A DNA stretch of 64,000 nucleotides from a virus, in IMG/VR virus record IMGVR_UViG_3300042453_003743, positions 32,001 through 96,000 of that record; one strand, 5' to 3'. The notes beneath the pieces are model-generated. The model had not been told where the DNA came from, did no database searches, and saw nothing but the letters and a program-made list of their open reading frames with translations. Every line of letters begins with the position of its first letter. Position 1 is the first letter of the stretch. The translations under genes were made by a program, and so were the position numbers. Of this stretch, positions 1-64,000 are shown piece after piece.

Positions 1-167
1 AACCATGAACGAATATCTTCATTGTTCATGGTTAAGTCATCTTCATCCATAGTTATTACAAATTTTACATCATTAAGTCCCGAAAGATTATCAATGTAAA
101 GTTGTAAAACTTTTTTAAATTTGTCTGGTCTGTTTCTTGTTGGAAATTTAATTAAAAGTTTTGGCAT
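1..167 (-). CDS. Glycosyltransferase-like protein (GT-A/GT2 type), 5' part; runs off the window edge
   Basis: Manual translation from ATG at 167: MPKLLIKFPTRNRPDKFKKVLQLYIDNLSGLNDVKFVITMDEDD. The PTRxR start and VxxDxDD pattern are typical of phage GT2-like enzymes. A minus-strand TTGACA lies near 208-213. Confidence 0.6.
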   Translation of the reverse strand, partial: MPKLLIKFPTRNRPDKFKKVLQLYIDNLSGLNDVKFVITMDEDDLTMNNEDIRSW

Positions 168-263
168 CTAAAATTCTCACAGTCAATATATATCTATTTT
201 AAATAAATGTCAAATATATTTATTTGACTTTACTCTAGAGTACTTTAATATACATCTTAAAAG

Positions 264-701
264 ATGAATCTAGAGAACCTTAAAGAACTTATTATTAAAG
301 ACTCTCAAATAGACTCTACAGAGTTAGGTATAGAGTCTCTTAAGATACCTCAAATACATTCTAAGTATCTTACAATTTTATCAGATGTCAAATTACTTTT
401 GACAAAGCAACAAAGCGATCTTGCCATATTAAAACTTCGCAAATGGAAAATTTATACAGGAAAAGCCTCACAGGAGGAGCTTGAATCTTGGGGCGAAGAG
501 GCTTGTGACTTTACATTGTTAAAAAGTGATGTTGAACAGTTTGTAGAAGCTGATCCGAAAGTAATAGAACTAAAATCAAAAATTGCTGTCAGCGAAGTTA
601 AACTTCGTATGGTAGAAGAGTTTATAAAATCCGTAAATAACAGAAATTTTATGATAAAATCTGCTATTGAGTGGCAAAAAATGATGAACGGCATAGTATA
701 A
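264..701 (+). CDS. uvsY: Recombination mediator UvsY
   Basis: 145 aa, IPQIHSKYL...YTGKA...NRNFMIKSAIEW; directly upstream of uvsW as in T4-like phages. Confidence 0.9.
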   Translation: MNLENLKELIIKDSQIDSTELGIESLKIPQIHSKYLTILSDVKLLLTKQQSDLAILKLRKWKIYTGKASQEELESWGEEACDFTLLKSDVEQFVEADPKVIELKSKIAVSEVKLRMVEEFIKSVNNRNFMIKSAIEWQKMMNGIV

Positions 702-704
702 ATA
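697..704 (+). promoter_or_regulatory. T4-type late promoter (representative)
   Basis: TATAAATA before uvsW. (A/C)TAAATA also precedes gp3, gp23, gp22, gp18, gp13, gp25, gp48/gp4 and the genes at 30068, 32734, 38585, 40528, 48484/48522 and 63186. Confidence 0.8.
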
Positions 705-708
705 TTGA

Positions 709-2205
709 GTGGATATAGATGTTGAATCTACAGATGAAGTTAGATATTATGTAAAAGCCGAAAAAGGACTAAAACAAGAACTGAGAGATTACTTCTCATT
801 CATGGTCCCCGGAGCCCAATATATGCCTTTATATAAAAAAAGGATTTGGGATGGAAAAATTCGTCTTTATGATATTTTATCGTCTACATTGCCCAGAGGG
901 CTAAAAACATATTTAAATAAATTTTGCCAAGAACGTGGATATAGCTTAAATATAAAGGAGAGCAAAAATCCTTTATGCGTAACAGAGGAGGAACTTCAGG
1001 CTTTCTACGAATCACTGAAAGTTTGCGTCCGCAAACAACCAGTAAAGATGCACACACATCAGGTGCAAGCTATTATGCATGGATTGAACAATCATCGTTC
1101 AGTTCTGATATCTCCGACTGGCTCTGGAAAAAGTCTTATTATATACGTATTGGTTCGATATCTACAAAAGGTATTAAATACCGACCGCAAAATATTGATT
1201 TTAGTTCCAACCGTTGGCCTCGTCAATCAGATGGAGGCCGATTTTTTTGATTACTCAAGTCAAGATAAATCCTGGTCCTGCAAAAAGTATATTCACAAGA
1301 TATCTGCTGGTGCAGACAAAGAAACAAAGAAACAGATAGTAGTCTCGACATGGCAATCAATCTACAAATTGCCTAGAGAATGGTTCGATCAGTTTGATGC
1401 CATATTCTTTGATGAGTGTCATCAAGCAAAAGCAGAATCAATCAATTTCATCGGACAGAAACTGACCAAGGCTTGGTTCCGTTGTGGTACAACAGGAACA
1501 CTACAACAAACACAGGCACACAGATTAAGCATCGAAGGAATTCTTGGTCCAGCTGTTCAGTTCATCCAAACAAAAAACTTAATGAACAAAGGGTTACTTG
1601 CAACACTCGGTATTGATTGTATTCTATTGAAATACACAGACGAAGAAAAACAGCTGTTAAAAAAACAAAAATATGCAGATGAGATAAAATGGATCATAAG
1701 TAATGATAAGAGAAATGAGTTCATCTGGCAACTGGTCTCCAGAACAAAGGGCAATGCGCTTGTACTCTTCAATTATGTTGAAGCGCAAGGCAAGCCTCTC
1801 TACGAACTTTTCAAAGAAAAAGCGGGAACACGCAAGGTCTATTTTATCTCAGGTAAAACAGAAGCAGAGGCGAGAGAGTACATTCGAAGAATTATTGACT
1901 CTGAAAAAGATGCCATTCTGGTGGCGAGTTACGGTACAACTAGTGCTGGCATTAATATCGTTAATCTTGATAATATTGTTTTCGCCTCTCCTACAAAATC
2001 CGTAATTCGTTTACTACAAAGCATTGGTCGTGGATTAAGAGTTTCAGAAAAGAAAAAAACATTGAAGGTGTTTGATATTGTTGATGATCTATCTTGGAAG
2101 TCACACAAGAATCATGTATACAGACACTTTGAAGAGCGTATAAAAATTTACAAAAAAGAAAAATTTGATTACAAAATATATTCGATGCCTTTTACAGAAA
2201 CTTAA
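709..2205 (+). CDS. uvsW: SF2 DNA helicase UvsW
   Basis: WDGKIRLY, Walker A SPTGSGKS, DECH box, QSIGRGLR motif VI; GTG start behind TATAAATA. Confidence 0.95.
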   Translation: MDIDVESTDEVRYYVKAEKGLKQELRDYFSFMVPGAQYMPLYKKRIWDGKIRLYDILSSTLPRGLKTYLNKFCQERGYSLNIKESKNPLCVTEEELQAFYESLKVCVRKQPVKMHTHQVQAIMHGLNNHRSVLISPTGSGKSLIIYVLVRYLQKVLNTDRKILILVPTVGLVNQMEADFFDYSSQDKSWSCKKYIHKISAGADKETKKQIVVSTWQSIYKLPREWFDQFDAIFFDECHQAKAESINFIGQKLTKAWFRCGTTGTLQQTQAHRLSIEGILGPAVQFIQTKNLMNKGLLATLGIDCILLKYTDEEKQLLKKQKYADEIKWIISNDKRNEFIWQLVSRTKGNALVLFNYVEAQGKPLYELFKEKAGTRKVYFISGKTEAEAREYIRRIIDSEKDAILVASYGTTSAGINIVNLDNIVFASPTKSVIRLLQSIGRGLRVSEKKKTLKVFDIVDDLSWKSHKNHVYRHFEERIKIYKKEKFDYKIYSMPFTET

Positions 2206-2232
2206 GAAGATAAATATTATGGAAGGGAGGAC

Positions 2233-2889
2233 ATGCATATGTCCGAATCGCTTCCTGAGAATTCTTTCTCAGGCGTACTAAAAGTTGTTAAACTGCTCAC
2301 CGGAGAAGAAGTGGTTGGTTTGGTGAGTGAACCTACGCCAGATAAAATTTTAATAAAATTGCCAGCAAGGCTGGATAATTATTACACAAAAACTGAAAAA
2401 GAGGGCATTGTTGAATACGTTAAATTAACAAACTATTTTGTAAATTTAAACTCTCAAGAAGCATCTTTTTTCAAGACAGCGGTGGTCTATATCGGAGATC
2501 CATCTCTTGAACTTCAAAAAATGTATGAAGTATATTTTCTGGCAATGCAAACTGATCCAAAATCTTTATTAGAAAATATGCCTGCAAGCGAAAATAATAC
2601 AGACAACGGATTACAGCTTTTAAACGATTTGTTTAATAATGAAGATTTTGTAAATTTTGTAAATGATTTGATTGAAACTTATGAAGATTCAGAATTGTTT
2701 GAAGATGATGGAGAAGAGGAAGTCGTAGAACTGGATATGGAAGAGGCTGAACAAGAACAGCCCAAAGCCCAACCAAAGCCAAAGAAACGCACCAGAGTCA
2801 AACCAGAAACGAATAAGCTACCATACAATCCAGAGCAGCCACCAGAAAACCCCGAAAGCTGGTCAGATAATCCATCTGACTATATTTAA
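2233..2889 (+). CDS. Conserved hypothetical protein (Sm-like N-terminus, acidic C-terminus)
   Basis: VVKLLTGEEVVG start resembles the protein that usually follows uvsW in T4-like phages. Confidence 0.6.
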   Translation: MHMSESLPENSFSGVLKVVKLLTGEEVVGLVSEPTPDKILIKLPARLDNYYTKTEKEGIVEYVKLTNYFVNLNSQEASFFKTAVVYIGDPSLELQKMYEVYFLAMQTDPKSLLENMPASENNTDNGLQLLNDLFNNEDFVNFVNDLIETYEDSELFEDDGEEEVVELDMEEAEQEQPKAQPKPKKRTRVKPETNKLPYNPEQPPENPESWSDNPSDYI

Positions 2890-3413
2890 GCAGTATTTTT
2901 TAGATTTGAAGGTGCGTCTGGGGTAATAATATAATGTGAATATTTAAATCTACAAACGGCCTTTTGTATTATTACGTCTGAGCTATCAGACTGAAAAGAA
3001 AACCCCCCAAGTTCTACTGGAATTATATGATAAAATTTAAATGTTGTGGGTGTTGTTTCATTAAAACCATCATATATCAATAAATTTGCCTGATGATGCC
3101 AATCTTGATACTCAAGATTATGGTCTGTATCTGTATCGATGTTTGTTAAATTTCTTATCCAAGAATACAAATTTTTCCAATTTTGTAAATTTGAATCTAC
3201 AATAAATTCAACAGTCAGTGGAGCAAATTGTATTGCATGGGTTGGGATTGGAATAGTTGTTCCAAGTGTTGTGGGCTGCGGTTGTTCTCCAATTGATATT
3301 CCCGGAACATTTACTTTTTGGCAAAGCAATTCCATTTGTTTCAAACCTCTACCAAAAATTAATCTGAAATAACTGTTATATAATGGGTTTAAGTTTGGAG
3401 AACAAGTTGTCAT
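2886..3413 (-). CDS. gp3: Tail tube terminator / tail completion protein gp3
   Basis: CQKVNVPGISIG...FIVDSNLQNWKNLYSWI; tube-family fold, next to gp23. Confidence 0.8.
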   Translation of the reverse strand: MTTCSPNLNPLYNSYFRLIFGRGLKQMELLCQKVNVPGISIGEQPQPTTLGTTIPIPTHAIQFAPLTVEFIVDSNLQNWKNLYSWIRNLTNIDTDTDHNLEYQDWHHQANLLIYDGFNETTPTTFKFYHIIPVELGGFSFQSDSSDVIIQKAVCRFKYSHYIITPDAPSNLKNTA

Positions 3414-3433
3414 AAAAATATTTATGGTAAAAC

Positions 3434-3462
3434 AAAAACCTCCCGATTACTCGGGAGGTTTT
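3434..3462. terminator. Bidirectional intrinsic terminator after gp23
   Basis: AAAAACCTCCCGA-TTAC-TCGGGAGGTTTT perfect stem with A/T tails. Confidence 0.85.
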
Positions 3463-3484
3463 CGAAAGAGTTAATTTATACTAT

Positions 3485-4888
3485 TCAGATTGTATTACCG
3501 TGGAGGTTTTGAACAGCAGTCAAACGGTAGTATTGGTTCAGTCCAGTGGTGAGGGTTTCACCGTCTGGAATACCCGAGCTATTGAGTACGTAGGGGTTGG
3601 CTACAACACCATAGCGGGTCTTGAATGCAATACGTGGTTGGAAAGTGTTAGGATCGACTGCACGTACCATTTGTAGCGGGACGTATGGGCAGTAGAACAA
3701 TCCAGCATCGTATGGTGATTCACCCTTATAGCCGACGCAGAAGAAGTTATATCCTGCTGGGCTATATGGATCAATGTACACACGAATCTTACCATTGATT
3801 ACACCAGCGAAGGTGCTTTGTGTATCATCAACGTTAAGTTGTGGTGCGATTGCTGGGCTGAGGCTCATGAAACCGGACATTGCAAGAGCAGCAGCAGTGT
3901 CGCTGTCGCAGATGATGAAGTTTCCACGGCCACGGCGTGTTTCCTTAGCAAGGTAGTTGCATTCACGTTCAATTTGGAAGCTGAGGCCACGGAAGCGTTC
4001 AGCAGACCAACGACCGTCCGAGTCAACATCAAGATCGTATGTACCGGGAGCTGTCAAATCTCCTTGTACAGAACCTTGACGAGCAACGTAATAAATGGTC
4101 TTGACGATTTCGCGGTTGATTTCGGCAAGAATTTCGGTGCTGAGAAGGTTAGCAAGTTCAGCTTCAGCGTCGAGACCGTGAACAGCCTTAAGGTCTTGTG
4201 CCAATTCAACTGTGTAGTTGCTGCTTAGAGCGCGAGTCTTGGCCACGACTGAAACGCGGTCGATTGAGAACGCCATTTGGTTCCAGTTGGCAAACGGTGA
4301 GCTCTTACCGATTGCTTCGCCTTGCGAGGTCAAAATACCTCTGAGCAAGTTTAGAGCAGCATCGTTTGCTGGTTTGACTGCAGTTCCGATAGAAGCAGAC
4401 AGACCTTTGGTAGATGCAAATGTTGATCCTAATGTCCAACCTGAACCACCGAATCCAGCTTGTGGTTCTTGGAACATAGCTTCAACATATCCAGCGTTTC
4501 CGTAGGATGAACCAACGGTTCCGCCGTAGGCATAGTTAGCGCGCATTGCAAAGATGAGGCCAGTTGGGGCAGTCATTGGTTGAACGCCGCAAATGTCATA
4601 AGCCATCAAATTTGGCATTGCACGGCGAACTAGGCTGATGAGCACTGGGTCATAACCAGAGACAGCAGCTGTGTTGTAGCCGGTTGAGGTTGCTGGACCA
4701 CCAAGGTTTCCAGAACCCATGTCTTCAACAAGGTGTTGTTGGCGAATGGATTGCTCTTGGTTTTCCAAAAGAACTGCGGTGACTTTCTTACGATAGTCAT
4801 CTTGAATTGAAGGGAGAGCTTCGTGACTGAGCACTGGATCCCACTTCTCTGTTAATACGTCATATGGTGTGTTTTCTGCGAATTGCAT
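3485..4888 (-). CDS. gp23: Major capsid protein gp23
   Basis: VLLENQ, DPVLISLVRRAMPNLMAYDICGVQPM, ELAQDLKAVHGLDAEAELANLLSTEI, FQPRIAFKTRYG. Confidence 0.98.
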   Translation of the reverse strand: MQFAENTPYDVLTEKWDPVLSHEALPSIQDDYRKKVTAVLLENQEQSIRQQHLVEDMGSGNLGGPATSTGYNTAAVSGYDPVLISLVRRAMPNLMAYDICGVQPMTAPTGLIFAMRANYAYGGTVGSSYGNAGYVEAMFQEPQAGFGGSGWTLGSTFASTKGLSASIGTAVKPANDAALNLLRGILTSQGEAIGKSSPFANWNQMAFSIDRVSVVAKTRALSSNYTVELAQDLKAVHGLDAEAELANLLSTEILAEINREIVKTIYYVARQGSVQGDLTAPGTYDLDVDSDGRWSAERFRGLSFQIERECNYLAKETRRGRGNFIICDSDTAAALAMSGFMSLSPAIAPQLNVDDTQSTFAGVINGKIRVYIDPYSPAGYNFFCVGYKGESPYDAGLFYCPYVPLQMVRAVDPNTFQPRIAFKTRYGVVANPYVLNSSGIPDGETLTTGLNQYYRLTAVQNLHGNTI

Positions 4889-4934
4889 TTTTTAGTTATC
4901 TCCTGTGAGTAAAATTATTTAGAAAATTTGTTAT

Positions 4935-5933
4935 TTAGACCTTCTTGTTAAGTCTTCCAATCGCTCCAACATAATTTTCTACTAAAGTTGTTGGAGTTTG
5001 TTTTACGGTAGCAAATGTTTGTTCTGGTTGAACTGTTTTTGCTGGGTTTGATACTTTTCCTGAATTGATATAATTTTCACGAATTGCAACTAATTTTTCT
5101 TTGTATTCTTCTGGGGTTTCGAAAGAAACGCTTTCCATCAAAGATTGTAGTTTTGCAATTTGTGTGTCAGCAAGATCTCTTGTTTCTGCGACAAAAATCC
5201 CAGCACACTCAGTCAACGAAACTTCTTTTTTCAATTCAATGTTGGTATTGACAGCTTCATTCAACTTGTCTTGTAGTTCTCTATTTTGTCCGTAGAGTTC
5301 ATCAAGGACATTATATTTTTCTGCTGGTACATCAATGTAGTGATTTTCAAAAAGATTTTTTAGACCATTAATAAAGTTTTCTGCAATTTGTGTTTTAATG
5401 CCTTGTTCAACGGCAACAACATTGTCTTGCATCCATTCTTCTACAACGTAGTCTAGATAATCGTCAACCTTTTCAACCAAAGCTTCAGTTAGATTATCAA
5501 GATATTCTTTAACATTTTGATCAACGCCTTCAGCAATTACATTCATGTTCTTTTGAACACGATCTGAAACAGCGGCTTCAAAAATTCCTTCAAGCTTGAT
5601 GACAAGCTCTTCGCTTGCATTTTCTTCACCGAGAAGACCTACGAGAGCATCTCTAAATTCTGCGCGAGCTTGCTCTTGCATTTCTTCTTCCCCCTCCTCT
5701 GTTTCTTCTGTTTCTTCTGTTTCTTCTGAGTTTTGTGCAGTTTTTCCTGCAACAGAGTTTGGGACAACAGGTGCGGGGACTGGTGTTGTGGCTGGTGCTG
5801 CAGAAACAACTGGTGTTGCTGTCATAGAACCCTTGCCGGTTGCGTCGAAGTCTGGTTTTCCATCTGAAACAGCTCCCAAGCCCATGGCTTGTGCTACGGC
5901 TTCAGAAATTGTTTTTTTGTTTGTGTTTTTCAT
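4935..5933 (-). CDS. gp22: Prohead core scaffold protein gp22
   Basis: IFEAAV, KVDDYLDYVVEEWM, LKNLFENHYIDVP. Confidence 0.93.
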   Translation of the reverse strand: MKNTNKKTISEAVAQAMGLGAVSDGKPDFDATGKGSMTATPVVSAAPATTPVPAPVVPNSVAGKTAQNSEETEETEETEEGEEEMQEQARAEFRDALVGLLGEENASEELVIKLEGIFEAAVSDRVQKNMNVIAEGVDQNVKEYLDNLTEALVEKVDDYLDYVVEEWMQDNVVAVEQGIKTQIAENFINGLKNLFENHYIDVPAEKYNVLDELYGQNRELQDKLNEAVNTNIELKKEVSLTECAGIFVAETRDLADTQIAKLQSLMESVSFETPEEYKEKLVAIRENYINSGKVSNPAKTVQPEQTFATVKQTPTTLVENYVGAIGRLNKKV

Positions 5934-5978
5934 AAAAAAAGAATCCTTTTAGTGTAAAATATTTATAATAAATTAAAT

Positions 5979-6647
5979 TTATGGTGTTCTGCTTCTAGCC
6001 GACCCAGTTCCAGAAGATGTAGCATCTTCTGGATTCAGTGGCATAATTTTTGGTGATTTGGGAATGGAAAATGATTTTTTTCCTGAACCTTGCATTATAT
6101 CTGAAATATTTCTAGCACCAATTTGACTCAACTCTTGATTTACAAAATCATAACCAGAAATAGTTTTAAGCTGACCCATCAACGTACCCATGAATGCACC
6201 ACCTAAACTTTCACCAAATTTTCCAGCAAGATTTTTTCCAAACTGGCTAACAGCACCACCAAGACCAGGACCAAACATACTCAACAAACCACCTGCAGCA
6301 TACATGCCCAGAGCTTTCTTTAAATCGTCAGCTTCAGTAGCCCCAAACATTATACTTGAATCTTTTTTAGATTTTGAAGGCGCACCCATTCCACCACCAC
6401 CCTTCACACCACCAAAACCAGTTTTTGTCGATTTTGATGGATCTGCTGGTTTTGCCGAACCTGTTGAAGAGGGGGGGGCCGAAGCCGTGGCTCCCGGTGC
6501 AGTAGCTTCACCCAAATAATGATTTTCTGGAAAAAGAATACAATAACGACTCATATTGTTTCTGGGGCCATTATCTTTTTTAATTGCCTCGGAAAGAGTA
6601 TGTTGTAAATATTGTTTTTCTTCGTTTCCTAAAAAATTATTTTTCAT
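5979..6647 (-). CDS. Hypothetical Gly-rich protein inserted between gp21 and gp22
   Basis: 222-aa ORF coupled to gp21 by a 4-nt overlap; Gly-rich amphipathic centre. Confidence 0.65.
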   Translation of the reverse strand: MKNNFLGNEEKQYLQHTLSEAIKKDNGPRNNMSRYCILFPENHYLGEATAPGATASAPPSSTGSAKPADPSKSTKTGFGGVKGGGGMGAPSKSKKDSSIMFGATEADDLKKALGMYAAGGLLSMFGPGLGGAVSQFGKNLAGKFGESLGGAFMGTLMGQLKTISGYDFVNQELSQIGARNISDIMQGSGKKSFSIPKSPKIMPLNPEDATSSGTGSARSRTP

Positions 6648-7288
6648 AGATTTTTAAAATAATTTTCAAATATTTTTGTAATATTTTTGTTTAAATTGCG
6701 AGAAGATGAATTTTTAATTAATTTTTTAGATTCTTCATGCATTCTTTCTGACCAAATTCCATTATTAAAAATCCACTCCCTGCCTTCCATGATTCCATTT
6801 ACAAATGCGTTTGGTGCAGAAGGATCAGCGACAATATCGATTGCTGCCAACATAAAATCTTCTTGTACTTCTTGATAGCCATTTTTTGATTTGAGAGAAC
6901 CCATACCCCGCGTAGAAACTCCAAGTTGAGCGCCCTCATCAATGAGATTTTTTACAATTTTTCCCATTGGTGTATCTAAAACTTTTGCTCTACCGATTAT
7001 GTTATTTCCGTCCTCATGTAATTCTTTTACAATGTGTGAAACTCTATCAAGATTAACTGTTGGACCAGATGGGTGGTTCAACTCTCCCAGTGCACGGCCT
7101 TTGTCTACATACTCCGAAATATATCTTTTACATTCTTTTATTAAAGTATTTTGCGGATAGATGCGACCGTTTCTATTTTTTACACCACTTTGCATAAAAA
7201 TACCGTCGATATAATAATTTTTATCGCCGTTTCCCACATTTTCTTTAATATATTTTACGTCTTCAGTTAGTTCTGTTATCAGTTTCAT
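6644..7288 (-). CDS. gp21: Prohead protease gp21
   Basis: MKLITE, NRNGRIYP, ALGELNHP, GVSTRGMGS, DIVADPSAPNAFV. Confidence 0.96.
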   Translation of the reverse strand: MKLITELTEDVKYIKENVGNGDKNYYIDGIFMQSGVKNRNGRIYPQNTLIKECKRYISEYVDKGRALGELNHPSGPTVNLDRVSHIVKELHEDGNNIIGRAKVLDTPMGKIVKNLIDEGAQLGVSTRGMGSLKSKNGYQEVQEDFMLAAIDIVADPSAPNAFVNGIMEGREWIFNNGIWSERMHEESKKLIKNSSSRNLNKNITKIFENYFKNL

Positions 7289-7445
7289 TTGATTTGCTTT
7301 GGAAAATGGTTTTTGAAATTTCTTTATATTTTGTCTCTAACTTGTGACCAATTTTTTCATATAAAACTTTTGATGTTTTATCTTTGAATTCAATGGCATT
7401 TTCTTCGATTGCTGTTTTTAGCATGTTTCTAATTTCGTTTTTCAT
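7263..7445 (-). CDS. Small prohead core protein (gp67/gp68-like position)
   Basis: 60-aa helical ORF between portal and protease. Confidence 0.55.
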   Translation of the reverse strand: MKNEIRNMLKTAIEENAIEFKDKTSKVLYEKIGHKLETKYKEISKTIFQSKSNETDNRTN

Positions 7446-7855
7446 ATAATTCCTTTTGCTTGTTCAGAAAATTTTAAATGCTCTTTAAAAATTTCTGGAG
7501 TATCAAATATTTTTTCTGCCATTTTTTTTCTGTTTTCTGGATTCAAAGATTCAAACAAGTTAATTAAATTTTTGATATCTTTGTTGCTAATATTTATATT
7601 CATTCCATTTTTAAACGTATATTTTCCATTTTCAAAATTTTTAACAAAATTTACAAACTCTTGAATGTTTGAATTTGTTTCTGTAACTGATTTGGATAGC
7701 AACAATTTTTGTTGAACTTCTTGTTTTGCTTCCTTTAATGATTCATTCAATTTGAATGTGATTGTATCAATCACATTGTGTTTAAAGTATTCTTCATCTT
7801 CATGCAGAAGGCCATTTATGCCTCGCTTTAACAGAACTTGACTTATTTCTTTCAT
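7442..7855 (-). CDS. Prohead core protein (gp67/gp68-like position)
   Basis: 137 aa immediately downstream of portal, overlapping stop/start; LNPENRKKM-type C-terminus. Confidence 0.6.
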   Translation of the reverse strand: MKEISQVLLKRGINGLLHEDEEYFKHNVIDTITFKLNESLKEAKQEVQQKLLLSKSVTETNSNIQEFVNFVKNFENGKYTFKNGMNINISNKDIKNLINLFESLNPENRKKMAEKIFDTPEIFKEHLKFSEQAKGII

Positions 7856-55867: not shown

Positions 55868-55869
55868 TT

Positions 55870-56325: not shown

Positions 56326-56399
56326 GTTCCCGTAGCCCAGTTGGATAGAGCAGCCGCCTTCTAAGCGGCAGGTCGCTGGTTCGAATCCAGCCGGGAACG
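56326..56399 (+). tRNA. tRNA-Arg(UCU)
   Basis: Acceptor GTTCCCG/CGGGAAC, stem GCCGC/GCGGC, loop CTTCTAA, GGTTCGAATCC. Confidence 0.96.
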
Positions 56400-56541
56400 C
56401 TTGACAAGAAAGGAAACGGTGCTACAATGCTGTACATGAACACCCCAAAGAGTATATTATAAGTTTTGGCGGTGGTTCAAACAAACCGCATAGAGGCAAC
56501 CTACGGTTGCACGGTTCGCAGAGCCGTACAACTCTGCATAC

Positions 56542-56617
56542 GGAAGGGTGGCTGAATCGTAGTTAGAGCGCATGCCTTATAAGCGTGAATATGTGGGTGC
56601 AACTCCCGCCCCTTCCA
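56542..56617 (+). tRNA. tRNA-Ile(UAU)
   Basis: Acceptor GGAAGGG/CCCTTCC, stem CATGC/GCGTG, loop CTTATAA, variant T-loop TGCAACT, A73. Confidence 0.85.
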
Positions 56618-56640
56618 CTTCCCCCAACCAAAGGAACGAG

Positions 56641-56847
56641 ATGGATCTCAACAAGATCAGAGAGTGCTTGACAACGTTGGAAGACTTCGCCGCCATTCTT
56701 GATGATGGCATGGCTCCTGTCACGCAGGAGGAGATCGAAATCATGGCAGAGGAACTTCCCAAGATCATCTCCACTCTCAAGAAGGAAACCGATGTCAGCA
56801 CGGGCACCGATATGTACGTCAAGTACAGCGGCTTCTGTGACGGCTAA
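56641..56847 (+). CDS. Hypothetical protein
   Basis: MDLNKIRE..., AAGGAA Shine-Dalgarno. Confidence 0.7.
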   Translation: MDLNKIRECLTTLEDFAAILDDGMAPVTQEEIEIMAEELPKIISTLKKETDVSTGTDMYVKYSGFCDG

Positions 56848-56898
56848 AAGTTTTTGTTTTTTGCTTGACAACCCCCAACCACAAGGTACAATAGACAC

Positions 56899-57180
56899 AT
56901 GAACTTCGACTTCAACAACATCGCCCTGATCGCCCTCTCGCTCTTTGCCGGATACTTCGGCCTCGCCTACATGAAGGCCCGCTTTGAGGACAGGATGCGC
57001 GCCTACACGCAGCGCATGGATGATCTTCAGACTTGGTTCGACCGTGAGAACGAGCGCATCATGGATCGGATTCGGACTCTTGATGTCCGCGTGAATGATC
57101 TCCGTTTCAACTACGAGACTCACGCCGAATGCAAGAGCAAGTACCCGGCGGAGAAGAACTACTACAACACGGAAGTCTAA
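56899..57180 (+). CDS. Membrane-anchored coiled-coil protein (leaderless)
   Basis: N-terminal hydrophobic helix, then heptads; TTGACA(56865)-16-TACAAT-6-ATG. Confidence 0.8.
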   Translation: MNFDFNNIALIALSLFAGYFGLAYMKARFEDRMRAYTQRMDDLQTWFDRENERIMDRIRTLDVRVNDLRFNYETHAECKSKYPAEKNYYNTEV

Positions 57181-57206
57181 ATCCGCTCTAGACTTCCTCT
57201 CATACC

Positions 57207-57237
57207 AGAGAGCCCCGCAATGGGCTCTCTGTTTTTA
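57207..57237 (+). terminator. Intrinsic terminator
   Basis: CAGAGAGCCC-CGCAAT-GGGCTCTCTG-TTTTT. Confidence 0.85.
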
Positions 57238-57423
57238 TTTTGACAGTAATCTACTGATAGTAGTTTTGGATCGGATAGTAGTCCGATAACTAGGCGGCAC
57301 TCGGCTTGACAAGTGGAAGGTGATGTGGTACAATCATATTGGTGGACAATATAAAAATGGATATTTCAAAATATTTGCGATAGGGTACTTGACACCCCAA
57401 AAAGATTGTGGTACAATGTTCGC

Positions 57424-58695
57424 ATGAACAGCAACATCGACCGCCGCAAGCAGAAGTTCCTCAAGGCTCTCACCGACCTGTACGGAGTCCCATCCTCCAT
57501 CGGTGAGGCACGGTACACCCGTGAGCAGTGCATCAACGCCTTCCACAACACTTACAAGGTGTCGCCCAACGACAACTACAGCACCCTCCCGGCTTGGATC
57601 GTGCAAGACAAGTCCCGTCGCCTTGGCCGGGGACTCTACAACATTCCCGAAACGGTTGTCCTGACCGACGCCATCGAACCCGAAAATGTTTACGAAACTT
57701 CAGGACAGGATTTGACACCACAGGAAACTTGTGGTAGAATGGAAACCATGAACAGCAGCAACTACAACCTCGTCATGCCGTCCAACGATGTTTCCCTCGT
57801 CCCCGTCAAGAACGAAACTTTCGTTCCGTGGGGACACTACGAGGACATCAATGCCATCCTCGCCTCCAAGCAGTTCGCTCCGGTCTACATCACGGGTCTG
57901 TCGGGCAACGGCAAGACCACGATGATCGAACAGGTCTGCGCGAACACCGGACGGGAGTGCATCCGTGTCAACATCACCGCCGAAACCGACGAGGATGACC
58001 TGATCGGTGGGTTCCGCCTCATCAACGGCGAAACCAAGTTCGTGTTCGGTGGAGTCGTGCAGGCCATGCAGCGTGGCGCAATCCTCCTGTTGGACGAGAT
58101 CGACTTGGGAACGGAGCGCATGATGTGCCTTCAGCCCGTGCTTGAGGGCAAGGGTGTCTACATCAAGAAGATCGGAATGTTCGTCAAGCCCGCTCCCGGC
58201 TTCAATGTGGTCGCCACCGCCAACACGAAGGGCAAGGGCGAGTCTGATCGGTTCGTCGGCACCCGCTGCATGAACGAGGCGTTCCTTGACCGCTTCTCCT
58301 ACTGGTTTGAGCAGGAGTACGCTGATAGGGTGGTGGAGGCCCGCATCATCATCCGCAAGATGAAGGCGTATGGCAAGGAGGACAAGGACTTCGCGCAGTA
58401 CCTCGTCAAGTGGGCGGAAACGATCCGCTTGGGCTTCAAGGAGGGCGGCTTGGATGACATCATCACGACCCGTCGCTTGGAGGAGGTCTGCAAGGCGTTC
58501 GCCATCTTCAACGACAAGGAGAAGGCGATCAAGTTGACTCTCACCCGGTTCGACCCGGCTACGCAGGAGGCGTTCTACAACCTCTACACCAAGATCGACC
58601 CGACCATCCTTCCGCCTGTGGACGGGATGGACAAGGAGAAGCAGGCCGTTCCCGCTCCCTCCCCGTCTGACACCAACTACGCAATCAACGCCTAA
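57424..58695 (+). CDS. MoxR/CobS-type AAA+ ATPase
   Basis: GLSGNGKT, ETDEDDLIGG, LLLDEID, ATANTKGKG, NEAFLDRF, ITTRRL; matches the 'cobS' family of T4-like phages. Confidence 0.93.
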   Translation: MNSNIDRRKQKFLKALTDLYGVPSSIGEARYTREQCINAFHNTYKVSPNDNYSTLPAWIVQDKSRRLGRGLYNIPETVVLTDAIEPENVYETSGQDLTPQETCGRMETMNSSNYNLVMPSNDVSLVPVKNETFVPWGHYEDINAILASKQFAPVYITGLSGNGKTTMIEQVCANTGRECIRVNITAETDEDDLIGGFRLINGETKFVFGGVVQAMQRGAILLLDEIDLGTERMMCLQPVLEGKGVYIKKIGMFVKPAPGFNVVATANTKGKGESDRFVGTRCMNEAFLDRFSYWFEQEYADRVVEARIIIRKMKAYGKEDKDFAQYLVKWAETIRLGFKEGGLDDIITTRRLEEVCKAFAIFNDKEKAIKLTLTRFDPATQEAFYNLYTKIDPTILPPVDGMDKEKQAVPAPSPSDTNYAINA

Positions 58696-58712
58696 CAAAA
58701 AGGAAAAAGAAA

Positions 58713-58937
58713 ATGCCTTACATGAACAAGCGCAATCGTTTCGTCGCAGCCGCCAAGCAGTACGCGGATGCCAACCTCAACGGCGACTACAGCAACTTCA
58801 AGAAGTCTGACCTCCTCACGGTCGCACAGTCGATCAACATGAAGGGGACTCCGACTTGGGTTGTCAAGGAGTACGCAAGCGCGGTGAGCCGTGGCGTCTA
58901 CGACCTGACGAGCCTGATCGCTCCTGTGACTGTCTGA
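58713..58937 (+). CDS. Small protein resembling the N-terminal domain of the AAA+ ATPase
   Basis: PTWVV.......RGVYDL versus PAWIV.......RGLYNI in the ATPase; AAGGA Shine-Dalgarno. Confidence 0.75.
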   Translation: MPYMNKRNRFVAAAKQYADANLNGDYSNFKKSDLLTVAQSINMKGTPTWVVKEYASAVSRGVYDLTSLIAPVTV

Positions 58938-59011
58938 TGCTGTTCTGATGTGGGGTGGGGCAATCGGCCCCACCCCTTGACAAGACGCACCACCTGTGGT
59001 AGAATACCGAC

Positions 59012-61252
59012 ATGAACACTTCTCTCTCCATCTTCGCCCGCGCTCTCGCAACCGAAAACCTCTCGTTCTCGTTCGATGCCAACGCAGACACCGCATCGTT
59101 CGACACCAAGAGCCGTCACCTCGTCATGCCCGTGTGGGATGTCTCCGACACCCTTCAGACCATGCTTGTCGCCCATGAGATCAGCCACGCCCTGTGGACT
59201 CCCCATGAGCGCAGTCAGGAGTTGCTGACGCAGGCGGAGAAGGACGGCTACTGCATCAAACTCCTCCACCACATTGCGAATGTCATTGAGGATGTCCGCA
59301 TTGAGAAGTTGATGAAGGCCAAGTACCCCGGCACCCGCAGAGACTTCTTCTTGGGCTACAAGGAGATCGTGGATGCCGACCTGTTCAAGTTCAAGTCGAT
59401 GGACTTGAAGAACACCAACATCATCAACCGACTCAACCTCCACTTCAAGTGGGGTGTCCCCGGCTTCCTGCCCATCGACCTCAACGCGGACGAGAACGAG
59501 ATCGCCATGTTGGTCGATGCCGTTCAGACCTTCGATCAGGGGTTTGAGTTGGCAAAGCACCTCTACAAGCATCCTTCCATGAAGGATATGCGCGAGAAGT
59601 ACGAGGCGCAGGCTGAAAAGCAGAAGAAGTCCTCCGGCACGGACGGGGATCAGGATGATGACGGCACGATGTCGCAGACTGATCTTTCGGACAGCAATCT
59701 TGGCATGGTCGATATGCCCTGTGAGTTCGGTCGCAAGAACGGCGAGAAGTTCCACGCCACGACCCTGACCATCAGCCCGGTGGTCAAGATCGAAAACAAC
59801 ATCATCACCACCGACGAGATGCTTGAGTCCTACGAGGACGCGATCATCGGAAACCCGTATGGGAATCCCACGCTTGACTTGACCAACTACCGCTCCTTCG
59901 TCAAGGAGTCCGATGCGTTCGTTCGCCAGTTGGTCGCGCAGTTTGAGCGTCGCAAGGCTGCGGACGAGATTCGCCGTGAGCGGCCCAAGCAGACCGGGAT
60001 GCTGAACCTTGACCGCCTCCACCAGTTCCGCACCCACGATGACATCTTCCTGTCCAAGATCATCAAGCAGGACGGCAAGAATCACGGCATCGTGTTCTTG
60101 ATCGACTTCTCCGGGTCTATGACCACCGTGCTTGACCATTGCATCCTTCAGGTGTTCCAGTTGGTTTGGTTCTGCGAGAAGGCCAAGATTCCGTTTGAGG
60201 TGTTCGGCTTCACCAACATGAACCTGATCGGCAACCGTGGCAAGGAGGAGGATGAGCGGCACCGCAAGTTCTGCCGCCAACACTCCATTGAGGAGCGGTA
60301 TGTTCCGCTGTACCCCACCGAAACGCAGAACCCTCGCCCGGACAGCATTGTGTGCGGCAACACCCGGCTCATTTCGTTGGCTTCGTCGGCTGATTCGCCT
60401 GCCAAGCGTGAGCGTCTGCTTGCCTTTATCTACGAGTCCTCCGTGCAGCGTACTCGCAGTCAGGTGTTCTCGCTTGGTGGTACTCCGACCGTGGAGGCCA
60501 TGATCCTCACCACTCAATACATGAAGAAGTGGGTGCAGGACAACAATGTGCAGATTCCGACCCTGATGCTCGTCACCGATGGACAGCCCAACGGTGTCTC
60601 GTTGGACCCGACCTCGCCCATGTATTCGGATGTGCCGTATCAGATTCGGGAGAATATGTCCCTCATGGTCCGCAACGACATCCTTCAGACCATGACCCGC
60701 ATCGACAACAAGGAACACGACGGCATGGGCTTGGGCAATGTGGTGGTGTCCGTGATGCTTGATGATCTTCGTCAGACGATGAACGCGAGGACTGTCGGTA
60801 TGTATGTGGGTGGTCGCACCTTCAACGATTCGCTCTACCGTGGCTTCTGCCTTCTGCCGCAAGACCATGAGCAGATGGACAGGATCATTGAGCAGGCACG
60901 AAAGAATGGAGATTGGAGAGCGACGATAAGCCTCCGCGAAAGCCCCCGCTACGAGATGGCTCAACAGCAGTACATGAGTGAGGGGTGCATCATCCTCCCC
61001 ACCGTGAGCAACCCCGGCTACGATGCCTTCTTCCTCATCAAGACTCCCAAGATCGTCAAGGACGAGGAGGCGATTGTGGAGAGCGGAACCTTCGTCAAGG
61101 TGAAGAACACCTTCGTCAAGACGATGGGCAAGAGAGCCGGGAGCCGTGTGTTCCTCTCCAAGTATGTTGACATCGTGGCGGGTCAGCCTGTGCCAAAGAA
61201 CGGGGGCAAGTTGTACGACCTCCCCGCCCACAACGGACTTGAAAGAAAGTAA
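59012..61252 (+). CDS. HExxH metallopeptidase-like + VWA domain protein (CobT-like MoxR partner)
   Basis: HEISHALWT, NVIEDVRIEK, MIDAS DFSGSM, GGTP, VTDG; leaderless promoter at 58977. Confidence 0.9.
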   Translation: MNTSLSIFARALATENLSFSFDANADTASFDTKSRHLVMPVWDVSDTLQTMLVAHEISHALWTPHERSQELLTQAEKDGYCIKLLHHIANVIEDVRIEKLMKAKYPGTRRDFFLGYKEIVDADLFKFKSMDLKNTNIINRLNLHFKWGVPGFLPIDLNADENEIAMLVDAVQTFDQGFELAKHLYKHPSMKDMREKYEAQAEKQKKSSGTDGDQDDDGTMSQTDLSDSNLGMVDMPCEFGRKNGEKFHATTLTISPVVKIENNIITTDEMLESYEDAIIGNPYGNPTLDLTNYRSFVKESDAFVRQLVAQFERRKAADEIRRERPKQTGMLNLDRLHQFRTHDDIFLSKIIKQDGKNHGIVFLIDFSGSMTTVLDHCILQVFQLVWFCEKAKIPFEVFGFTNMNLIGNRGKEEDERHRKFCRQHSIEERYVPLYPTETQNPRPDSIVCGNTRLISLASSADSPAKRERLLAFIYESSVQRTRSQVFSLGGTPTVEAMILTTQYMKKWVQDNNVQIPTLMLVTDGQPNGVSLDPTSPMYSDVPYQIRENMSLMVRNDILQTMTRIDNKEHDGMGLGNVVVSVMLDDLRQTMNARTVGMYVGGRTFNDSLYRGFCLLPQDHEQMDRIIEQARKNGDWRATISLRESPRYEMAQQQYMSEGCIILPTVSNPGYDAFFLIKTPKIVKDEEAIVESGTFVKVKNTFVKTMGKRAGSRVFLSKYVDIVAGQPVPKNGGKLYDLPAHNGLERK

Positions 61253-61266
61253 GTAATATTAGGTAC

Positions 61267-61308
61267 GCCCCCACCAGGAAGGAGAGAGCCTGGTGGGGGT
61301 TTTCTTTT
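61267..61308 (+). terminator. Intrinsic terminator after the VWA gene
   Basis: CCCCCACCAGG-loop-CCTGGTGGGGG-TTTTCTTTT. Confidence 0.85.
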
Positions 61309-61309
61309 G

Positions 61310-62206
61310 TCAAGAACAAAAATTATTATTTCCAGAAAATAATAATTTTGATAGTAGTACTGATAGTACTCGGATCGGATAGTAGTTATTTGGACGCACC
61401 AAGTATATTGTACCATGCCGGATTCCCGGTGTCAAGCCCCCCTGTTATCGTCTTATCGGACTCCCCTTGACAAACTTCCGACCCCGTGGTACAATCGTAT
61501 TGGTGGACAAAATAATTGAATAGTTTATCAGACTTAGAACACAGGCCGGTGCTCAGAGGGTTATCGGACTTGTATTCAATTGCTTGACAACCCCTATATC
61601 TGGTGTATAGTTACCAGACTGTTCATGCGACTGATAACCCCCCAGCCCCCTGTGAGTACTGATCGTTATGGGGCGGGGGGTTATCGGGCGTTATTCTACC
61701 TGATTATTACCGGTCTGTCCCTCCTGGTTATATACTGGGCGGTTATCGGACTTGGAAAAATTATTCAGAATAATAACGGACAGGATTCAGAGGGACAGGA
61801 TCCAGGAAAGACGGCTCACTACTATCAGGGCGGGGTCCTCCAGATGCTCAGATACGCCAGGTCCCTCCCCACAGATTAAAAATAATAATTTCCGGACAGG
61901 ATTGAAACGGACATCCAGGAAACACCTGGACAGGATTCAAATTGTCGGACAGGATTGAGAAATTGTTAAAATTTCTCAAAATTTGTCAAATTTCTTTGAA
62001 AATTTGTAATTATTTGCTTGACAGCCTATAATGCCCTATAAGGCGTCGGTTTAAAAGAGGGCTCGGAGGGGTCTTTAAGGACTTGGAGGGGCTTGGAGGG
62101 CATTGTAAGACGATTAAAGGGGTGTTAGAGGGTGGGTCTGTAACTCCAAATTTCTCAAATATTCTTCAATATTCTTTACCCCACTCACTCCCACTCTCCC
62201 CCACCT
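61310..62206. other. Non-coding repeat-rich region, candidate replication origin
   Basis: Five GGACAGGAT repeats, several GTTATCGG boxes, divergent promoters, phased AAATTT tract at about 61960-62010. Confidence 0.5.
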
Positions 62207-62644
62207 TTACCCCTCATTGACAGGCTCAATATTCTCCATATCAGCCTTATCAATAACATAGGCTGGTATGGTTTTCTTTCCTTCTATTGAGTGTGCTTTC
62301 TTTATTCTATTCAACCCGTCTGTAATCGAAATAGTACCGTCTTCCTGCCTTATGCCCAATACGGGTACGCTGGTATCAGCCTTTTCCATTCTTTTCTTGT
62401 GTTGAGGATTATCCATGTCATATTGCTTGTCCCACCATTCCAAAGCGTCTGTTTCTTTGATGGGCAAATCTTTTACGAAAAATTCTTTCTTTGATTTGGC
62501 GAAATCGTAGATGTCCTTGACTCGGTACTTCTTCCCAGTCTCGTCATTGGTGGCGATTTGTTGATCCCAATTTTCTACCTGTCCCTTCTTGGGCGTGTCG
62601 AGGTAGGGGTCATAATTTTCTAAAAATTGTTTGAAATTTTTCAT
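62207..62644 (-). CDS. ParB/sulfiredoxin-like domain protein with capsid-targeting-like N-terminus
   Basis: Start MKNFKQFLE; ADTSVPVL...ITDGLNRIKKA...IPAYVI. Confidence 0.75.
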   Translation of the reverse strand: MKNFKQFLENYDPYLDTPKKGQVENWDQQIATNDETGKKYRVKDIYDFAKSKKEFFVKDLPIKETDALEWWDKQYDMDNPQHKKRMEKADTSVPVLGIRQEDGTISITDGLNRIKKAHSIEGKKTIPAYVIDKADMENIEPVNEG

Positions 62645-63186
62645 TCTTTGGTTCCGTGTATGATTCCATGTTCGATTCTGGCATTTGGGAAAACTTTTCT
62701 GACTTCTGGTAGATGGGCTGCGGTAGTCATGTTGTTCTGCCATGAATCTTTCTTTGTTTGCTTGCCCTGACCTGTTCTATCCCCTTCGTAAATGGAAATA
62801 AAGATTCTTCCACCGGGCTTGAGGGTTGAGTGTGCGGTTTTCAGGGCTTCGTGTCTGTATTCGGGTTCCTTGATGACATTCAGCACATTGAACAGAGATG
62901 CGCTGTCTGCCCCTTCCTTACCCACTTCCTGCATGACCTTCGTATTGTGTTCTTCCGGGCGGTTGAAGGGATCAAAGACATGAGCCTTGACTCCCAATTT
63001 TTCTAAAAATTCCACGGCGTTGTCAAACTTTCCGCCTCCGATGTCAATGTGCGTAGTGTCGGGCTTCCATCCCATTTTTCTGTGTATGGTGGTGTAGGCT
63101 TCGGGGAGTTTGGTCTTGTTGATGCTGGTTGCGGCAGAGGTGAACTCTTGGGCATCCTCAACAAGGAAATTTTTGAAACTTTTCAT
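62641..63186 (-). CDS. Class I SAM-dependent methyltransferase with capsid-targeting-like N-terminus
   Basis: Start MKSFKNFLVE behind late promoter CATAAATA; IDIGGGKF, FDPFNR, NVLNVI, LKPGG. Confidence 0.82.
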   Translation of the reverse strand: MKSFKNFLVEDAQEFTSAATSINKTKLPEAYTTIHRKMGWKPDTTHIDIGGGKFDNAVEFLEKLGVKAHVFDPFNRPEEHNTKVMQEVGKEGADSASLFNVLNVIKEPEYRHEALKTAHSTLKPGGRIFISIYEGDRTGQGKQTKKDSWQNNMTTAAHLPEVRKVFPNARIEHGIIHGTKE

Positions 63187-63243
63187 CAATCTATTTATGA
63201 GTCGAATGCTTGACACTCTTGGGTAATGGGGTATAGTTAACCC

Positions 63244-63516
63244 ATGCGAAACGAAAAGACTACCGCTGGGAACAAGGCCGCACAGGAGTTTCTGAAGGAT
63301 CAGAGCATCGCTGACCTCAAGGCCGAGATCATTCGTCTGAATGACAAGATTCATGCCATGCGCTCCGTTTTGTGGGAGTGGAATGTCTCGTCCGGGCCTG
63401 TGTGGGAATATTGGAAGTTGGCAAAGGTTGGAGAAACCGCCGAGGACTATTCCCATTGGACCGAGGACTATTTTGATTCTGACGACGACATCCCCCTTCC
63501 CCCCGAACAGGAGTAA
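63244..63516 (+). CDS. Hypothetical early protein (leaderless)
   Basis: TTGACA(63210)-16-TATAGT-6-ATG. Confidence 0.7.
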   Translation: MRNEKTTAGNKAAQEFLKDQSIADLKAEIIRLNDKIHAMRSVLWEWNVSSGPVWEYWKLAKVGETAEDYSHWTEDYFDSDDDIPLPPEQE

Positions 63517-63518
63517 AC

Positions 63519-63704
63519 ATGACTACCAAAATGAAAAAGAAAAAGACTACACCCGTAAAGACTCTTAAACTTTTCCCCGAGGCTGGTGTGTTGGGTCTGC
63601 TGACCGACGTTGCCATCACCTCCATGATGCTTGGCGTTGCGTTCATGATGCTTCTGCTTTGCTTGCAGATGGCCGAGAAAGTAACCATCACCTTTGGAAA
63701 GTAA
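63519..63704 (+). CDS. Small membrane protein
   Basis: Basic N-terminus plus hydrophobic helix; AGGAG Shine-Dalgarno. Confidence 0.6.
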   Translation: MTTKMKKKKTTPVKTLKLFPEAGVLGLLTDVAITSMMLGVAFMMLLLCLQMAEKVTITFGK

Positions 63705-63709
63705 ATCAC

Positions 63710-64000
63710 ATGAACAAGACAATCGCTACCAAATGGGTCAAGGCTCTTCGTTCAGGAAAGTATAAACAAGGTGACAATTATCTTTGTCAGATCAGCAGCA
63801 AGGGCATAAAGCACTGCTGCTTGGGTGTGCTGACGGAGATTTATCAGACCGAGCAGATAGCAAAGAAGAAAAAGACTCTTCCGGCAAAAATTGTCAAGAT
63901 GTATAAGAATGCCCCATTCGATGTCGTAAAGTATGGCAATGGCAAGAGTTCTGCCGAGGAACTTCCCCTCGCTGTTCAGCGTTGGGCTGACATGGATGGC
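63710..64000 (+). CDS. Conserved phage hypothetical protein (partial)
   Basis: Manual translation MNKTIATKWVKALRSGKYKQG...HCCLGVL; open to the window end. Confidence 0.75.
   Translation, partial: MNKTIATKWVKALRSGKYKQGDNYLCQISSKGIKHCCLGVLTEIYQTEQIAKKKKTLPAKIVKMYKNAPFDVVKYGNGKSSAEELPLAVQRWADMDG

Follow-up and report, generated by a model that had tools for sequence, protein, structure and literature searches.

How does a single phage genome come to carry two opposite base compositions side by side, and what could hold them apart? The question is raised by a window of 64,000 nucleotides, bases 32,001-96,000 of the single linear 137,341-bp IMG/VR contig IMGVR_UViG_3300042453_003743 (CheckV completeness 76%), in which a block of small genes, transfer RNAs (tRNAs) and promoter-like sites with a high guanine-plus-cytosine (GC) content interrupts the AT-rich genome of a T4-like myovirus. 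The first-pass annotation of the window had read this as a codon-gated temporal switch, with early genes using the codons of a GC-rich host, late genes depending on phage tRNAs made early, and two enzymes shifting the nucleotide pools toward A and T. The explanation that we favour, with about even confidence, is that the early module is held in a host-like composition and that ten phage tRNAs serve the AT-rich remainder. Positions below are those of the window unless the contig is named, and the features discussed are collected in Table 1.

Two compositions with sharp borders

A change-point scan of GC content placed the borders of the block at 49,313 and 61,229. The GC content is 35.1% over positions 1-49,299, 56.5% over 49,300-61,252 and 45.4% over 61,253-64,000; in profile it runs at ~35% up to 49 kb, at 51-62% from 49 to 61 kb and at 44-48% thereafter. 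The abrupt switch near 49,300 and the partial reversion after 61,250, both described in the first-pass annotation, are thus confirmed, and the intermediate zone extends past the window to ~98 kb of the genome. Third codon positions carry most of the shift: GC content at these positions (GC3) is 0.59-0.89 in the 17 accepted open reading frames (ORFs) of the block, 14 of them at 0.74-0.89, and mostly 0.15-0.35 in the contig genes outside it. Non-genic DNA has a GC fraction of 0.51 in the block versus 0.33 elsewhere. The block ORFs were picked by GC3 periodicity, an automatic caller having mis-called strands in this region; 14 of the 17 have translated matches in at least one of the relatives described below.

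Codon usage differs accordingly. Per 1000 codons, block versus rest, we counted 2.1 versus 58.5 for AAA, 1.4 versus 25.8 for ATA, 2.8 versus 19.3 for AGA, 0 versus 24.3 for TTA, 3.9 versus 31.5 for CAA and 11.4 versus 16.4 for TTG; AAA, AGA and ATA together make up 0.6% of codons in the block and 10.4% in the rest. The heavy use of AT-rich codons claimed earlier for the AT-rich part stood for AAA, ATA, AGA and TTA and is weak for TTG. Replication genes (GC3 0.33-0.47; DNA polymerase 0.47, class II ribonucleotide reductase 0.45, gp46 0.45) are intermediate between the block and the virion genes (0.15-0.30), and the major capsid gene gp23 is indeed more GC-rich than its neighbours, whose GC3 is 0.20-0.25. 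Outside the block, genes with a sigma70-like site upstream have a mean GC3 of 0.36, versus 0.27 for those without (p = 0.0025). In the block, C exceeds G at third positions of the coding strand in either gene orientation (0.47/0.32 for plus-strand genes, 0.48/0.32 for minus-strand ones), which ties the bias to expression and not to replication or the duplex. The A-, T- and G-ending codons are uneven between codon families in the block, CGT being at least as frequent as CGG and GGA more frequent than GGG. Quadruplet decoding of CGG was ruled out: 47 in-frame CGG codons occur outside the block, 5 of them within the gene for DNA polymerase, and the long ORFs are uninterrupted.

Two further compositional features were seen on the contig. 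A 2467-amino-acid (aa) ORF outside the window (contig 7,856-15,259) has a first-position GC of 0.65 and a GC3 of 0.23; the 51% GC bump at contig 12-15 kb results from the amino-acid content of this Gly-rich repeat protein and not from codon choice. A third composition spans contig 24,356-32,167 (into window positions 1-167), where ten minus-strand genes have 23-31% GC and a GC3 of 0.12-0.24.

Inheritance of the split

Relatives were defined as the 16 IMG/VR contigs found with the 746-aa protein encoded at the right end of the block (51-61% identity). In all 16, a GC-rich stretch ends just past the 746-aa gene, with a flank of 34-45% GC. Block GC reaches 55-64% in 15 of the 16; relative L095 has a weaker block (42-54% GC, block-gene GC3 0.50-0.67). 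Orthologue GC3 in the relatives is 0.7-0.93 in the block, ~0.4-0.6 in the next few kb and 0.2-0.45 beyond, and amino-acid identities to the relatives are alike in both compartments. The same four tRNAs occur in the same order in all 13 relatives that reach the tRNA region (the other three are too short to show it), L095 having Leu-UAA for Leu-CAA. L095 thus combines a weaker block with a changed tRNA, and block strength may be linked with the tRNA set or the host.

Both junctions are spanned by contigs of other studies: X5 (48,717-50,030) and X3 (48,533-49,404) on the left, and X2 (60,409-61,631) and X5 (59,997-61,415) on the right. The chimerism that the first-pass annotation had raised as a possibility is thereby excluded by independent contigs, and the same split, which it proposed to look for in related genomes, is there in every relative. 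At these divergences synonymous sites are near saturation, so the two compositions are maintained states and not an unameliorated transfer. We concluded that the split is inherited and is neither a chimera nor a recent import. For most pairs of relatives, identity at four-fold degenerate sites is 0.52-0.65 within the block, compared with 0.41-0.55 for the flank; the chance levels of these figures differ between the compartments, and the history of some pairs is mosaic. The 482-aa DUF7178 protein, whose gene is the final AT-rich one ahead of the left junction, retrieved 69 loci of at least 8 kb, none of which satisfied a split criterion; the split is therefore not general among phages with DUF7178 proteins, and the close relative L001 stops at the junction.

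Contigs with homologues of the 482-aa protein (L001-L080) are mostly GC-rich, with means of 0.40-0.69 and most at or above 0.50. In three independent DNA runs, the k-mer depth of single contigs (window 45,000-64,000) is 2-4 times higher in the block than in the flanks. From left flank through block to right flank the depths are 13.4, 29-44 and 8.5-9.8 for X2; 21-27, 33-47 and 19.8 for X3; and 5.6, 8-12 and 16.6 for X5. Contig depth of this kind is unreadable as copy number, and GC bias, sharing of the block by co-occurring strains or a repeat are possible causes.

Promoters and gene content of the block

A consensus scan of 48.4-64 kb detected 51 sigma70-like sites versus 9.7 ± 3.1 in shuffled sequences, and 32 of the 51 combine a perfect TTGACA with an overall score of 11 matches out of 12. 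With the strict pattern TTGACA-N16-18-TAnnnT, 48 sites were found in the contig, 32 of them within the 14 kb that hold the block (~10% of the length). An AT-rich control stretch of equal size gave 71 sites versus 62.8 ± 8.2 in shuffles, with only one 11/12 site. Chance promoter-like matches are thus ~6.5 times rarer in block-like composition (9.7 versus 62.8 per 15.6 kb in shuffles). The edges of the block coincide with the first and last strong promoters. Terminator-like hairpins were at the shuffle level in a simple scan (16 versus 15.4 ± 4.4), strong examples lying at 50483-50509, 52485-52503, 53880-53898 and 57206-57231. Some of the strong promoters form tandem pairs ~80 nt apart (53,918-54,022; 54,491-54,604; 57,306-57,417; 51,293-51,413).

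From the divergent promoter pair at 51.23-51.32 kb, four genes are oriented leftward and the remainder rightward. Most block genes are small and have no family match. Two larger genes end the block: a CobS-like ATPase, which is 44-55% identical to pelagiphage and cyanophage cobS and 71-83% identical in the relatives, and the 746-aa protein, which is 27-31% identical to the 'peptidase' adjoining cobS in cyanophages and in pelagiphage HTVC008M. A further promoter-like site, TTGACA-17-TAGAAT with a TG, lies inside the cobS-like gene (57,712-57,740). Gene presence is patchy among the relatives; only cobS, the 746-aa gene and one of 74 aa are shared by nearly all of them. We infer from the promoter type that the block is a promoter-dense early module of the host-polymerase type.

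Contigs of an RNA library (X18) cover 50755-50991, 52928-53078, 53575-53843, 54112-54262, 54287-54458, 57959-58109 and 58185-58335 in the block, and also 63546-63705; depth over 45,000-49,437 is almost nil, with a little in two bins. DNA was possibly present in this library and contigs cannot rank expression, and it was not counted as evidence.

Table 1. Compartments, genes and other features of the window (strand: +, plus; -, minus;., not applicable)
Feature	Position	Strand	Evidence and properties
AT-rich compartment	1..49312	.	35.1% GC; mostly T4-type virion genes, with UvsY, UvsW and auxiliary genes
GC-rich block	49313..61229	.	56.5% GC; GC3 0.59-0.89; 32 sigma70-type sites with 11/12 matches
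Intermediate zone	61253..64000	.	45.4% GC; gene GC3 0.46-0.56; fewer sigma70-type sites
gp23 major capsid gene	3485..4888	-	PF07068, E = 3.7e-134; GC 0.49, GC3 0.43
124-aa ORF	40546..40920	-	HSE...PCPVC motif; only deaminase candidate, unconfirmed
GMP-reductase-type gene, IMPDH/GMPR barrel, 344 aa	44810..45844	-	PF00478, E = 2.3e-68; GC3 0.33
DUF7178 protein, 482 aa	47036..48484	-	GC3 0.33; last AT-rich gene before the junction
Four small genes	49425-49763, 50007-50351, 50526-50789, 50929-51243	-	GC3 0.74-0.85; own promoter-like site each
phrog_21015 protein	49425-49763	-	PHROG match
WYL_2 protein	50929-51243	-	E = 3e-17
Divergent promoter region	51232..51321	.	Minus-strand site 51260-51232, plus-strand site 51293-51321
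Small rightward putative early genes, at least 9 ORFs	51468..55756	+	GC3 0.59-0.89
DUF7178 protein, 203 aa	52666-53277	+	PF23802, E = 9.8e-29
tRNA cluster Lys-UUU, Leu-CAA, Arg-UCU, Ile-UAU	55795..56618	+	ARAGORN; Rfam RF00005
CobS-like MoxR/AAA_5 ATPase	57406..58695	+	PF07728, E = 1.5e-18; CbbQ_C; GC3 0.81
'Peptidase'/CobT-like CobS partner, 746 aa	59012..61252	+	phrog_459, E = 1.2e-117; GC3 0.80; last block gene

Composition follows location

In phages HTVC008M and S-CAM4, the 'peptidase' and cobS genes lie between gp46 and gp45, within an AT-rich replication module, and show no rise in GC3, which resembles that of their neighbours (0.19-0.22 and 0.32-0.37). In the present contig gp46 and gp45 are adjacent save for two tiny ORFs, and the cobS/'peptidase' pair is 60 kb off, in the block; judged by gene order, the pair has evidently moved from one compartment to the other. 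The Arg share of Lys plus Arg, R/(K+R), in CobS and the 'peptidase' is 0.46-0.48 here versus 0.24 in HTVC008M and 0.17-0.35 in the AT-compartment orthologues of the present phage, and amino-acid content is shifted to Arg and to Gly, Ala, Arg and Pro (GARP) residues. Paralogues of DUF7178 and WYL_2 flank the left junction, with a GC3 of 0.33 and 0.22, respectively, on the AT side and of 0.80 and 0.78 in the block. A TATAAATA motif is found 6 nt upstream of the 482-aa DUF7178 gene, and 12 of the 21 late-type motifs of this sequence are followed within 120 nt by a gene on the same strand; as a late-type signal this placement is suggestive only.

tRNAs and their cognate codons

The earlier claim that four tRNAs sit under sigma70 promoters in the GC-rich part was supported by ARAGORN, Rfam and the promoter scan. 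The promoters of the cluster are at 55758-55785, 56111-56139 and 56401-56428: near-consensus TTGACA-N16/17-TAnAAT sites end 9-10 nt upstream of tRNA-Lys and tRNA-Leu, and the third is located between tRNA-Arg and tRNA-Ile. The contig codes for ten tRNAs in total, the six outside the block being Pro-UGG, Glu-UUC, Gln-UUG, Tyr-GUA, Gly-UCC and Asn-GUU, and 7 of the 10 have a uridine at anticodon position 34 (U34). In the AT compartment the cognate codons of these seven exceed their block frequency by a factor of 1.9-28, a contrast that serves as a proxy for a comparison with host codon usage. For the codons of the four block tRNAs the summed excess is 102 per 1000 (p = 0.006 versus random four-codon sets), and this excess is largely a general effect on A-ending codons. 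The predicted enrichment of tRNA-cognate codons outside the block was found for AAA, AGA and AUA and is slight for UUG.

A second tRNA group, Pro-UGG, Glu-UUC and Gln-UUG, is located at contig 97,208-99,219, 5-8 kb to the right of the block, and has been retained by most relatives (L081-L096). A permuted two-piece transfer-messenger RNA (tmRNA) adjoins tRNA-Tyr at contig 101,244-101,643 on the minus strand (L097:5335-5613; Rfam RF04321, 81.8 bits). Its tag, as predicted by ARAGORN, is ANIKAAPMRMAA, and that of the tmRNA of relative L087 is ANELAMAA.

Identity of the phage

The window belongs to an uncultured freshwater T4-like myovirus whose cultured kin, at ~50-54% amino-acid identity, are cyano- and pelagimyoviruses. 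Apart from gp23, its T4-type Pfam matches include the gp20 portal (PF07230, E = 1.2e-169), the large terminase gp17 (Terminase_6N/6C), the scaffold, UvsW and UvsY. Elsewhere in the contig, tblastn with HTVC008M proteins as queries detected gp55, gp45, gp44/62, RegA, gp46/47, gp43, gp41 and UvsX (35-55% identity, E 1e-28 to 1e-174), with Pfam support for gp43, UvsX, gp41 and gp46. The closest cultured phages are cyanomyoviruses (54% identity for the capsid protein, 50% for the terminase). Near-identical DNA was present in 16 non-source runs from 11-12 studies labelled lake, freshwater or aquatic metagenome. A megablast search of a phage collection with the window gave no DNA-level match beyond 51 nt of tRNA-Lys, and psbA was not found in the contig, a record that is 76% complete.

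Nucleotide-pool genes

The GMP reductase that the first-pass annotation had placed in the AT-rich part was recovered as a GMP-reductase-type gene (PF00478, 344 aa). The protein has a GuaC-like length and no CBS insert, is 45-51% identical to bacterial homologues and 40-43% identical to annotated phage GMP reductases, and has an orthologue of 85% identity in relative L001. Among phages, the best homologues come from those infecting Xanthomonas, Stenotrophomonas and Caulobacter, hosts that are GC-rich. Judged by family and length, it may plausibly help to turn G/C nucleotides into A/T nucleotides. The cytidine-type deaminase claimed alongside it was not confirmed: PF00383 has no match anywhere in the contig, and the 124-aa ORF at 40,546-40,920 (minus strand), which has the motif only, lacks a match to any family in Pfam (E ≤ 0.1) or PHROG. 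The deaminase part of the proposed pool shift fails with it. A ThyX gene and a dUTPase/dCTP-deaminase-like gene are present in the contig outside the window; homologues of PurA/PurZ and ThyA were not found in the contig at its 76% completeness.

What maintains the two compositions

The explanation that we favour starts from what was observed: two conserved compartments, a dense set of promoters and contrasting codon usage. The lineage would keep an early module of ~12 kb, driven by the host RNA polymerase, GC-rich and the rest of the genome AT-rich; the module would comprise at least 17 mostly small genes, the cobS/'peptidase' pair, the four tRNAs and ~30 near-consensus sigma70 promoters. Right after injection the block genes would be transcribed and translated by unmodified host machinery, and the block would therefore be held host-like in composition, which implies a GC-rich host. 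Its genes would thus stay nearly free of the A-ending codons AAA, AGA, AUA and UUA. Once made, the phage tRNAs, four from the block and six from elsewhere, would increase the capacity to decode the AT-rich genes for replication and the virion. The timing of expression, the GC content of the host and the benefit of the tRNAs are the conditional parts of this proposal.

Several results weigh against it. No host for the 'host-like' composition was found: the GMP-reductase protein compared with bacterial genome contigs gave a best identity of 51%, with matches spread over Gamma-, Beta- and Deltaproteobacteria and Bacteroidota; the tmRNA DNA compared with 401 Burkholderiales and 401 Alphaproteobacteria genomes gave only non-discriminating matches of 22-47 nt, which fell almost without exception in the tRNA-like arm and occurred in 58 and 229 genomes, respectively; and an ESM Atlas look-up of the block DUF7178 protein returned viral clusters only. 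Of the 14 A-ending sense codons, the seven matched by a phage tRNA differ between the compartments only marginally more than the rest (one-sided p = 0.049), and UUG, the codon of Leu-CAA, is hardly enriched outside the block. By analogy with T4, gp23 is the most abundant late protein, and its gene shuns AAA (3 of 13 Lys), AGA (5% of Arg) and ATA (0% of Ile) despite the phage tRNAs. It also avoids TTA and favours C-ending codons of the NNY type and CGT/CGC; its preferences for GAA (90%), CAA (100%) and CCA (74%) are cognate to tRNAs coded outside the block. The GC enrichment reaches non-genic DNA, beyond synonymous sites; C is used over T within codon pairs read by one tRNA, the block using GGC/GCC/CGC and gp23 GGT/GCT/CGT; and R/(K+R) of CobS and the 'peptidase' is raised. 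Together, the non-genic GC, the C-over-T pairs and the R/(K+R) values suggest a nucleotide-level pressure and not tRNA matching alone, which keeps both selection on the DNA and biased gene conversion alive. Caulobacter phage Cr30, discussed below, has no such block, and GC mismatch alone does not force this solution.

Selection might act on the DNA or RNA and not on codons. A GC-rich block would evade silencers of the H-NS, MvaT, Lsr2 or MucR type, true promoters would stand out in it for the host polymerase, and host-like codons would be a by-product. Silencers of AT-rich DNA exist in several phyla, and the non-genic GC, the choice of C over T in one-tRNA pairs, the shift to Arg and GARP residues, the rarity of chance promoter-like matches and the coincidence of the edges with the outermost strong promoters all agree with such selection. 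We consider it unlikely nonetheless: the AT-rich 90% of the genome is delivered into the same cell, Cr30 copes without a block, and a GC3 of 0.8 is far above the non-genic GC of 0.51, as where codon-level forces also act. A bolder form, to which we give rather little weight, makes base composition itself a temporal layer: the block alone would be clearly visible to the host polymerase and free of AT-binding silencers, and the AT-rich 90% would be poorly transcribed and translated until the late sigma factor, the clamp and the tRNAs are made. If true, the phage would exploit the way in which hosts treat foreign AT-rich DNA as an early/late switch. A neutral regional bias is decidedly unlikely in our judgement. 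It would arise from a recombination hot spot between promoter-terminator cassettes through GC-biased gene conversion or a local repair bias, and the enrichment of all site classes, the many near-identical promoter repeats and the patchy gene content are as it would predict; recombination of the cassettes known as PeSL is documented in T4-type phages in the accessible part of Arbiol et al. (2010, PMC2839356). GC-rich PeSL regions are, however, not reported for T4-type phages, and the excess of C3 over G3 in either orientation, the uneven codon endings and the sharp edges at module boundaries are at odds with it.

The strong codon gate, in which early-made phage tRNAs gate late-gene translation, now seems improbable. 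It does account for tRNAs behind early-type promoters and for the near absence of AAA, AGA and ATA from the block, but the gp23 gene is nearly without these codons, so late translation is not simply gated by the block tRNAs. Host translation can normally read AAA, AGA and AUA, albeit slowly, and gp55, gp45 and gp44/62 are present for T4-type late transcription. The codon-gated switch of the first-pass annotation gains no support from gp23, and gp55 and gp45 would suffice for timing. Very improbable, too, is the idea of a long direct terminal repeat, or of a T5-like first-injected segment, collapsed in assemblies: the content of the block does resemble a host-takeover module, but no observation counts as support, and the large terminase is of the T4 headful type. 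Least credible of all is that a GC-rich host or phage recently donated the block, or that the assembly is chimeric. Sharp edges would fit, but the 16 relatives keep the split and the gene order at 51-61% identity of the 746-aa protein, cobS and the 'peptidase' are native to the phage group, contigs from other studies cross both junctions, and none of the 16 matches is a uniformly GC-rich contig.

Relation to known phages and significance

Cyanopodoviruses match their hosts in GC content, and cyanomyoviruses stay low in GC and carry tRNAs, according to the accessible part of Limor-Waisberg et al. (2011, PMC3152331). Compared with what is described there, the present phage resembles the low-GC T4-like cyanomyoviruses in its AT-rich genome and mostly U34 tRNAs for A-ending codons, and it shares Arg-UCU and Asn-GUU with the Syn9 set. 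In the cyanomyoviruses the whole genome is low in GC, and host matching is given as the strategy of another virus family, the podoviruses; here both regimes are found in separate blocks. In the terms of that source, one genome may join the "specialisation" of cyanopodoviruses and the "adaptation" of cyanomyoviruses.

Early and late codon usage differs statistically in 7 of 14 phages, as reported in the accessible part of Mioduser, Goz and Tuller (2017, PMC5683454). As in those phages, synonymous choice differs here between putative temporal classes, the classes being assigned from promoters and gene function; unlike what that part describes, the difference is one of GC3 ~0.8 versus ~0.22, in a contiguous and sharply bounded block, with non-coding DNA and amino acids affected. 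The block is also like the hyperplastic PeSL regions of T4-type phages (Arbiol et al. 2010, PMC2839356) in its many small genes, strong sigma70-like promoters and patchy content. As far as the accessible part goes, PeSL regions have hairpin terminators and no compositional difference is described for them, whereas terminator-like sites here are at the shuffle level.

Caulobacter, with a GC content of ~67%, is the host of the T4-like phage Cr30, which has 37.8% GC and, like the present phage, a GMP-reductase homologue (41.7% identity). Cr30 and the present phage have Arg-UCU, Asn-GUU, Gly-UCC and Pro-UGG tRNAs in common. Unlike the present phage, Cr30 has a flat GC profile of 33-44% bar two 2-kb spikes and no GC-rich early block, and its four TTGACA-type sites equal the control level. 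No description of a discrete GC-rich early block was found in the literature searched, the supplements of which could hold GC profiles.

Two codon dialects in one genome are a rare natural case. What phage tRNAs are for, and whether codon usage reflects selection or mutation, are old questions that have mostly been tackled through comparisons between genomes. In the present case a single replicon has long held two opposite regimes under the same mutation supply and in the same population, which amounts to a natural experiment, aided by paralogous domains (DUF7178 and WYL_2) in both compartments and by the relocated cobS/'peptidase' pair. Population data on the phage from lake metagenomes could separate selection, gene conversion and mutation bias. 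For viral contigs in general, sharp GC breaks are not always chimeras or recent transfers.

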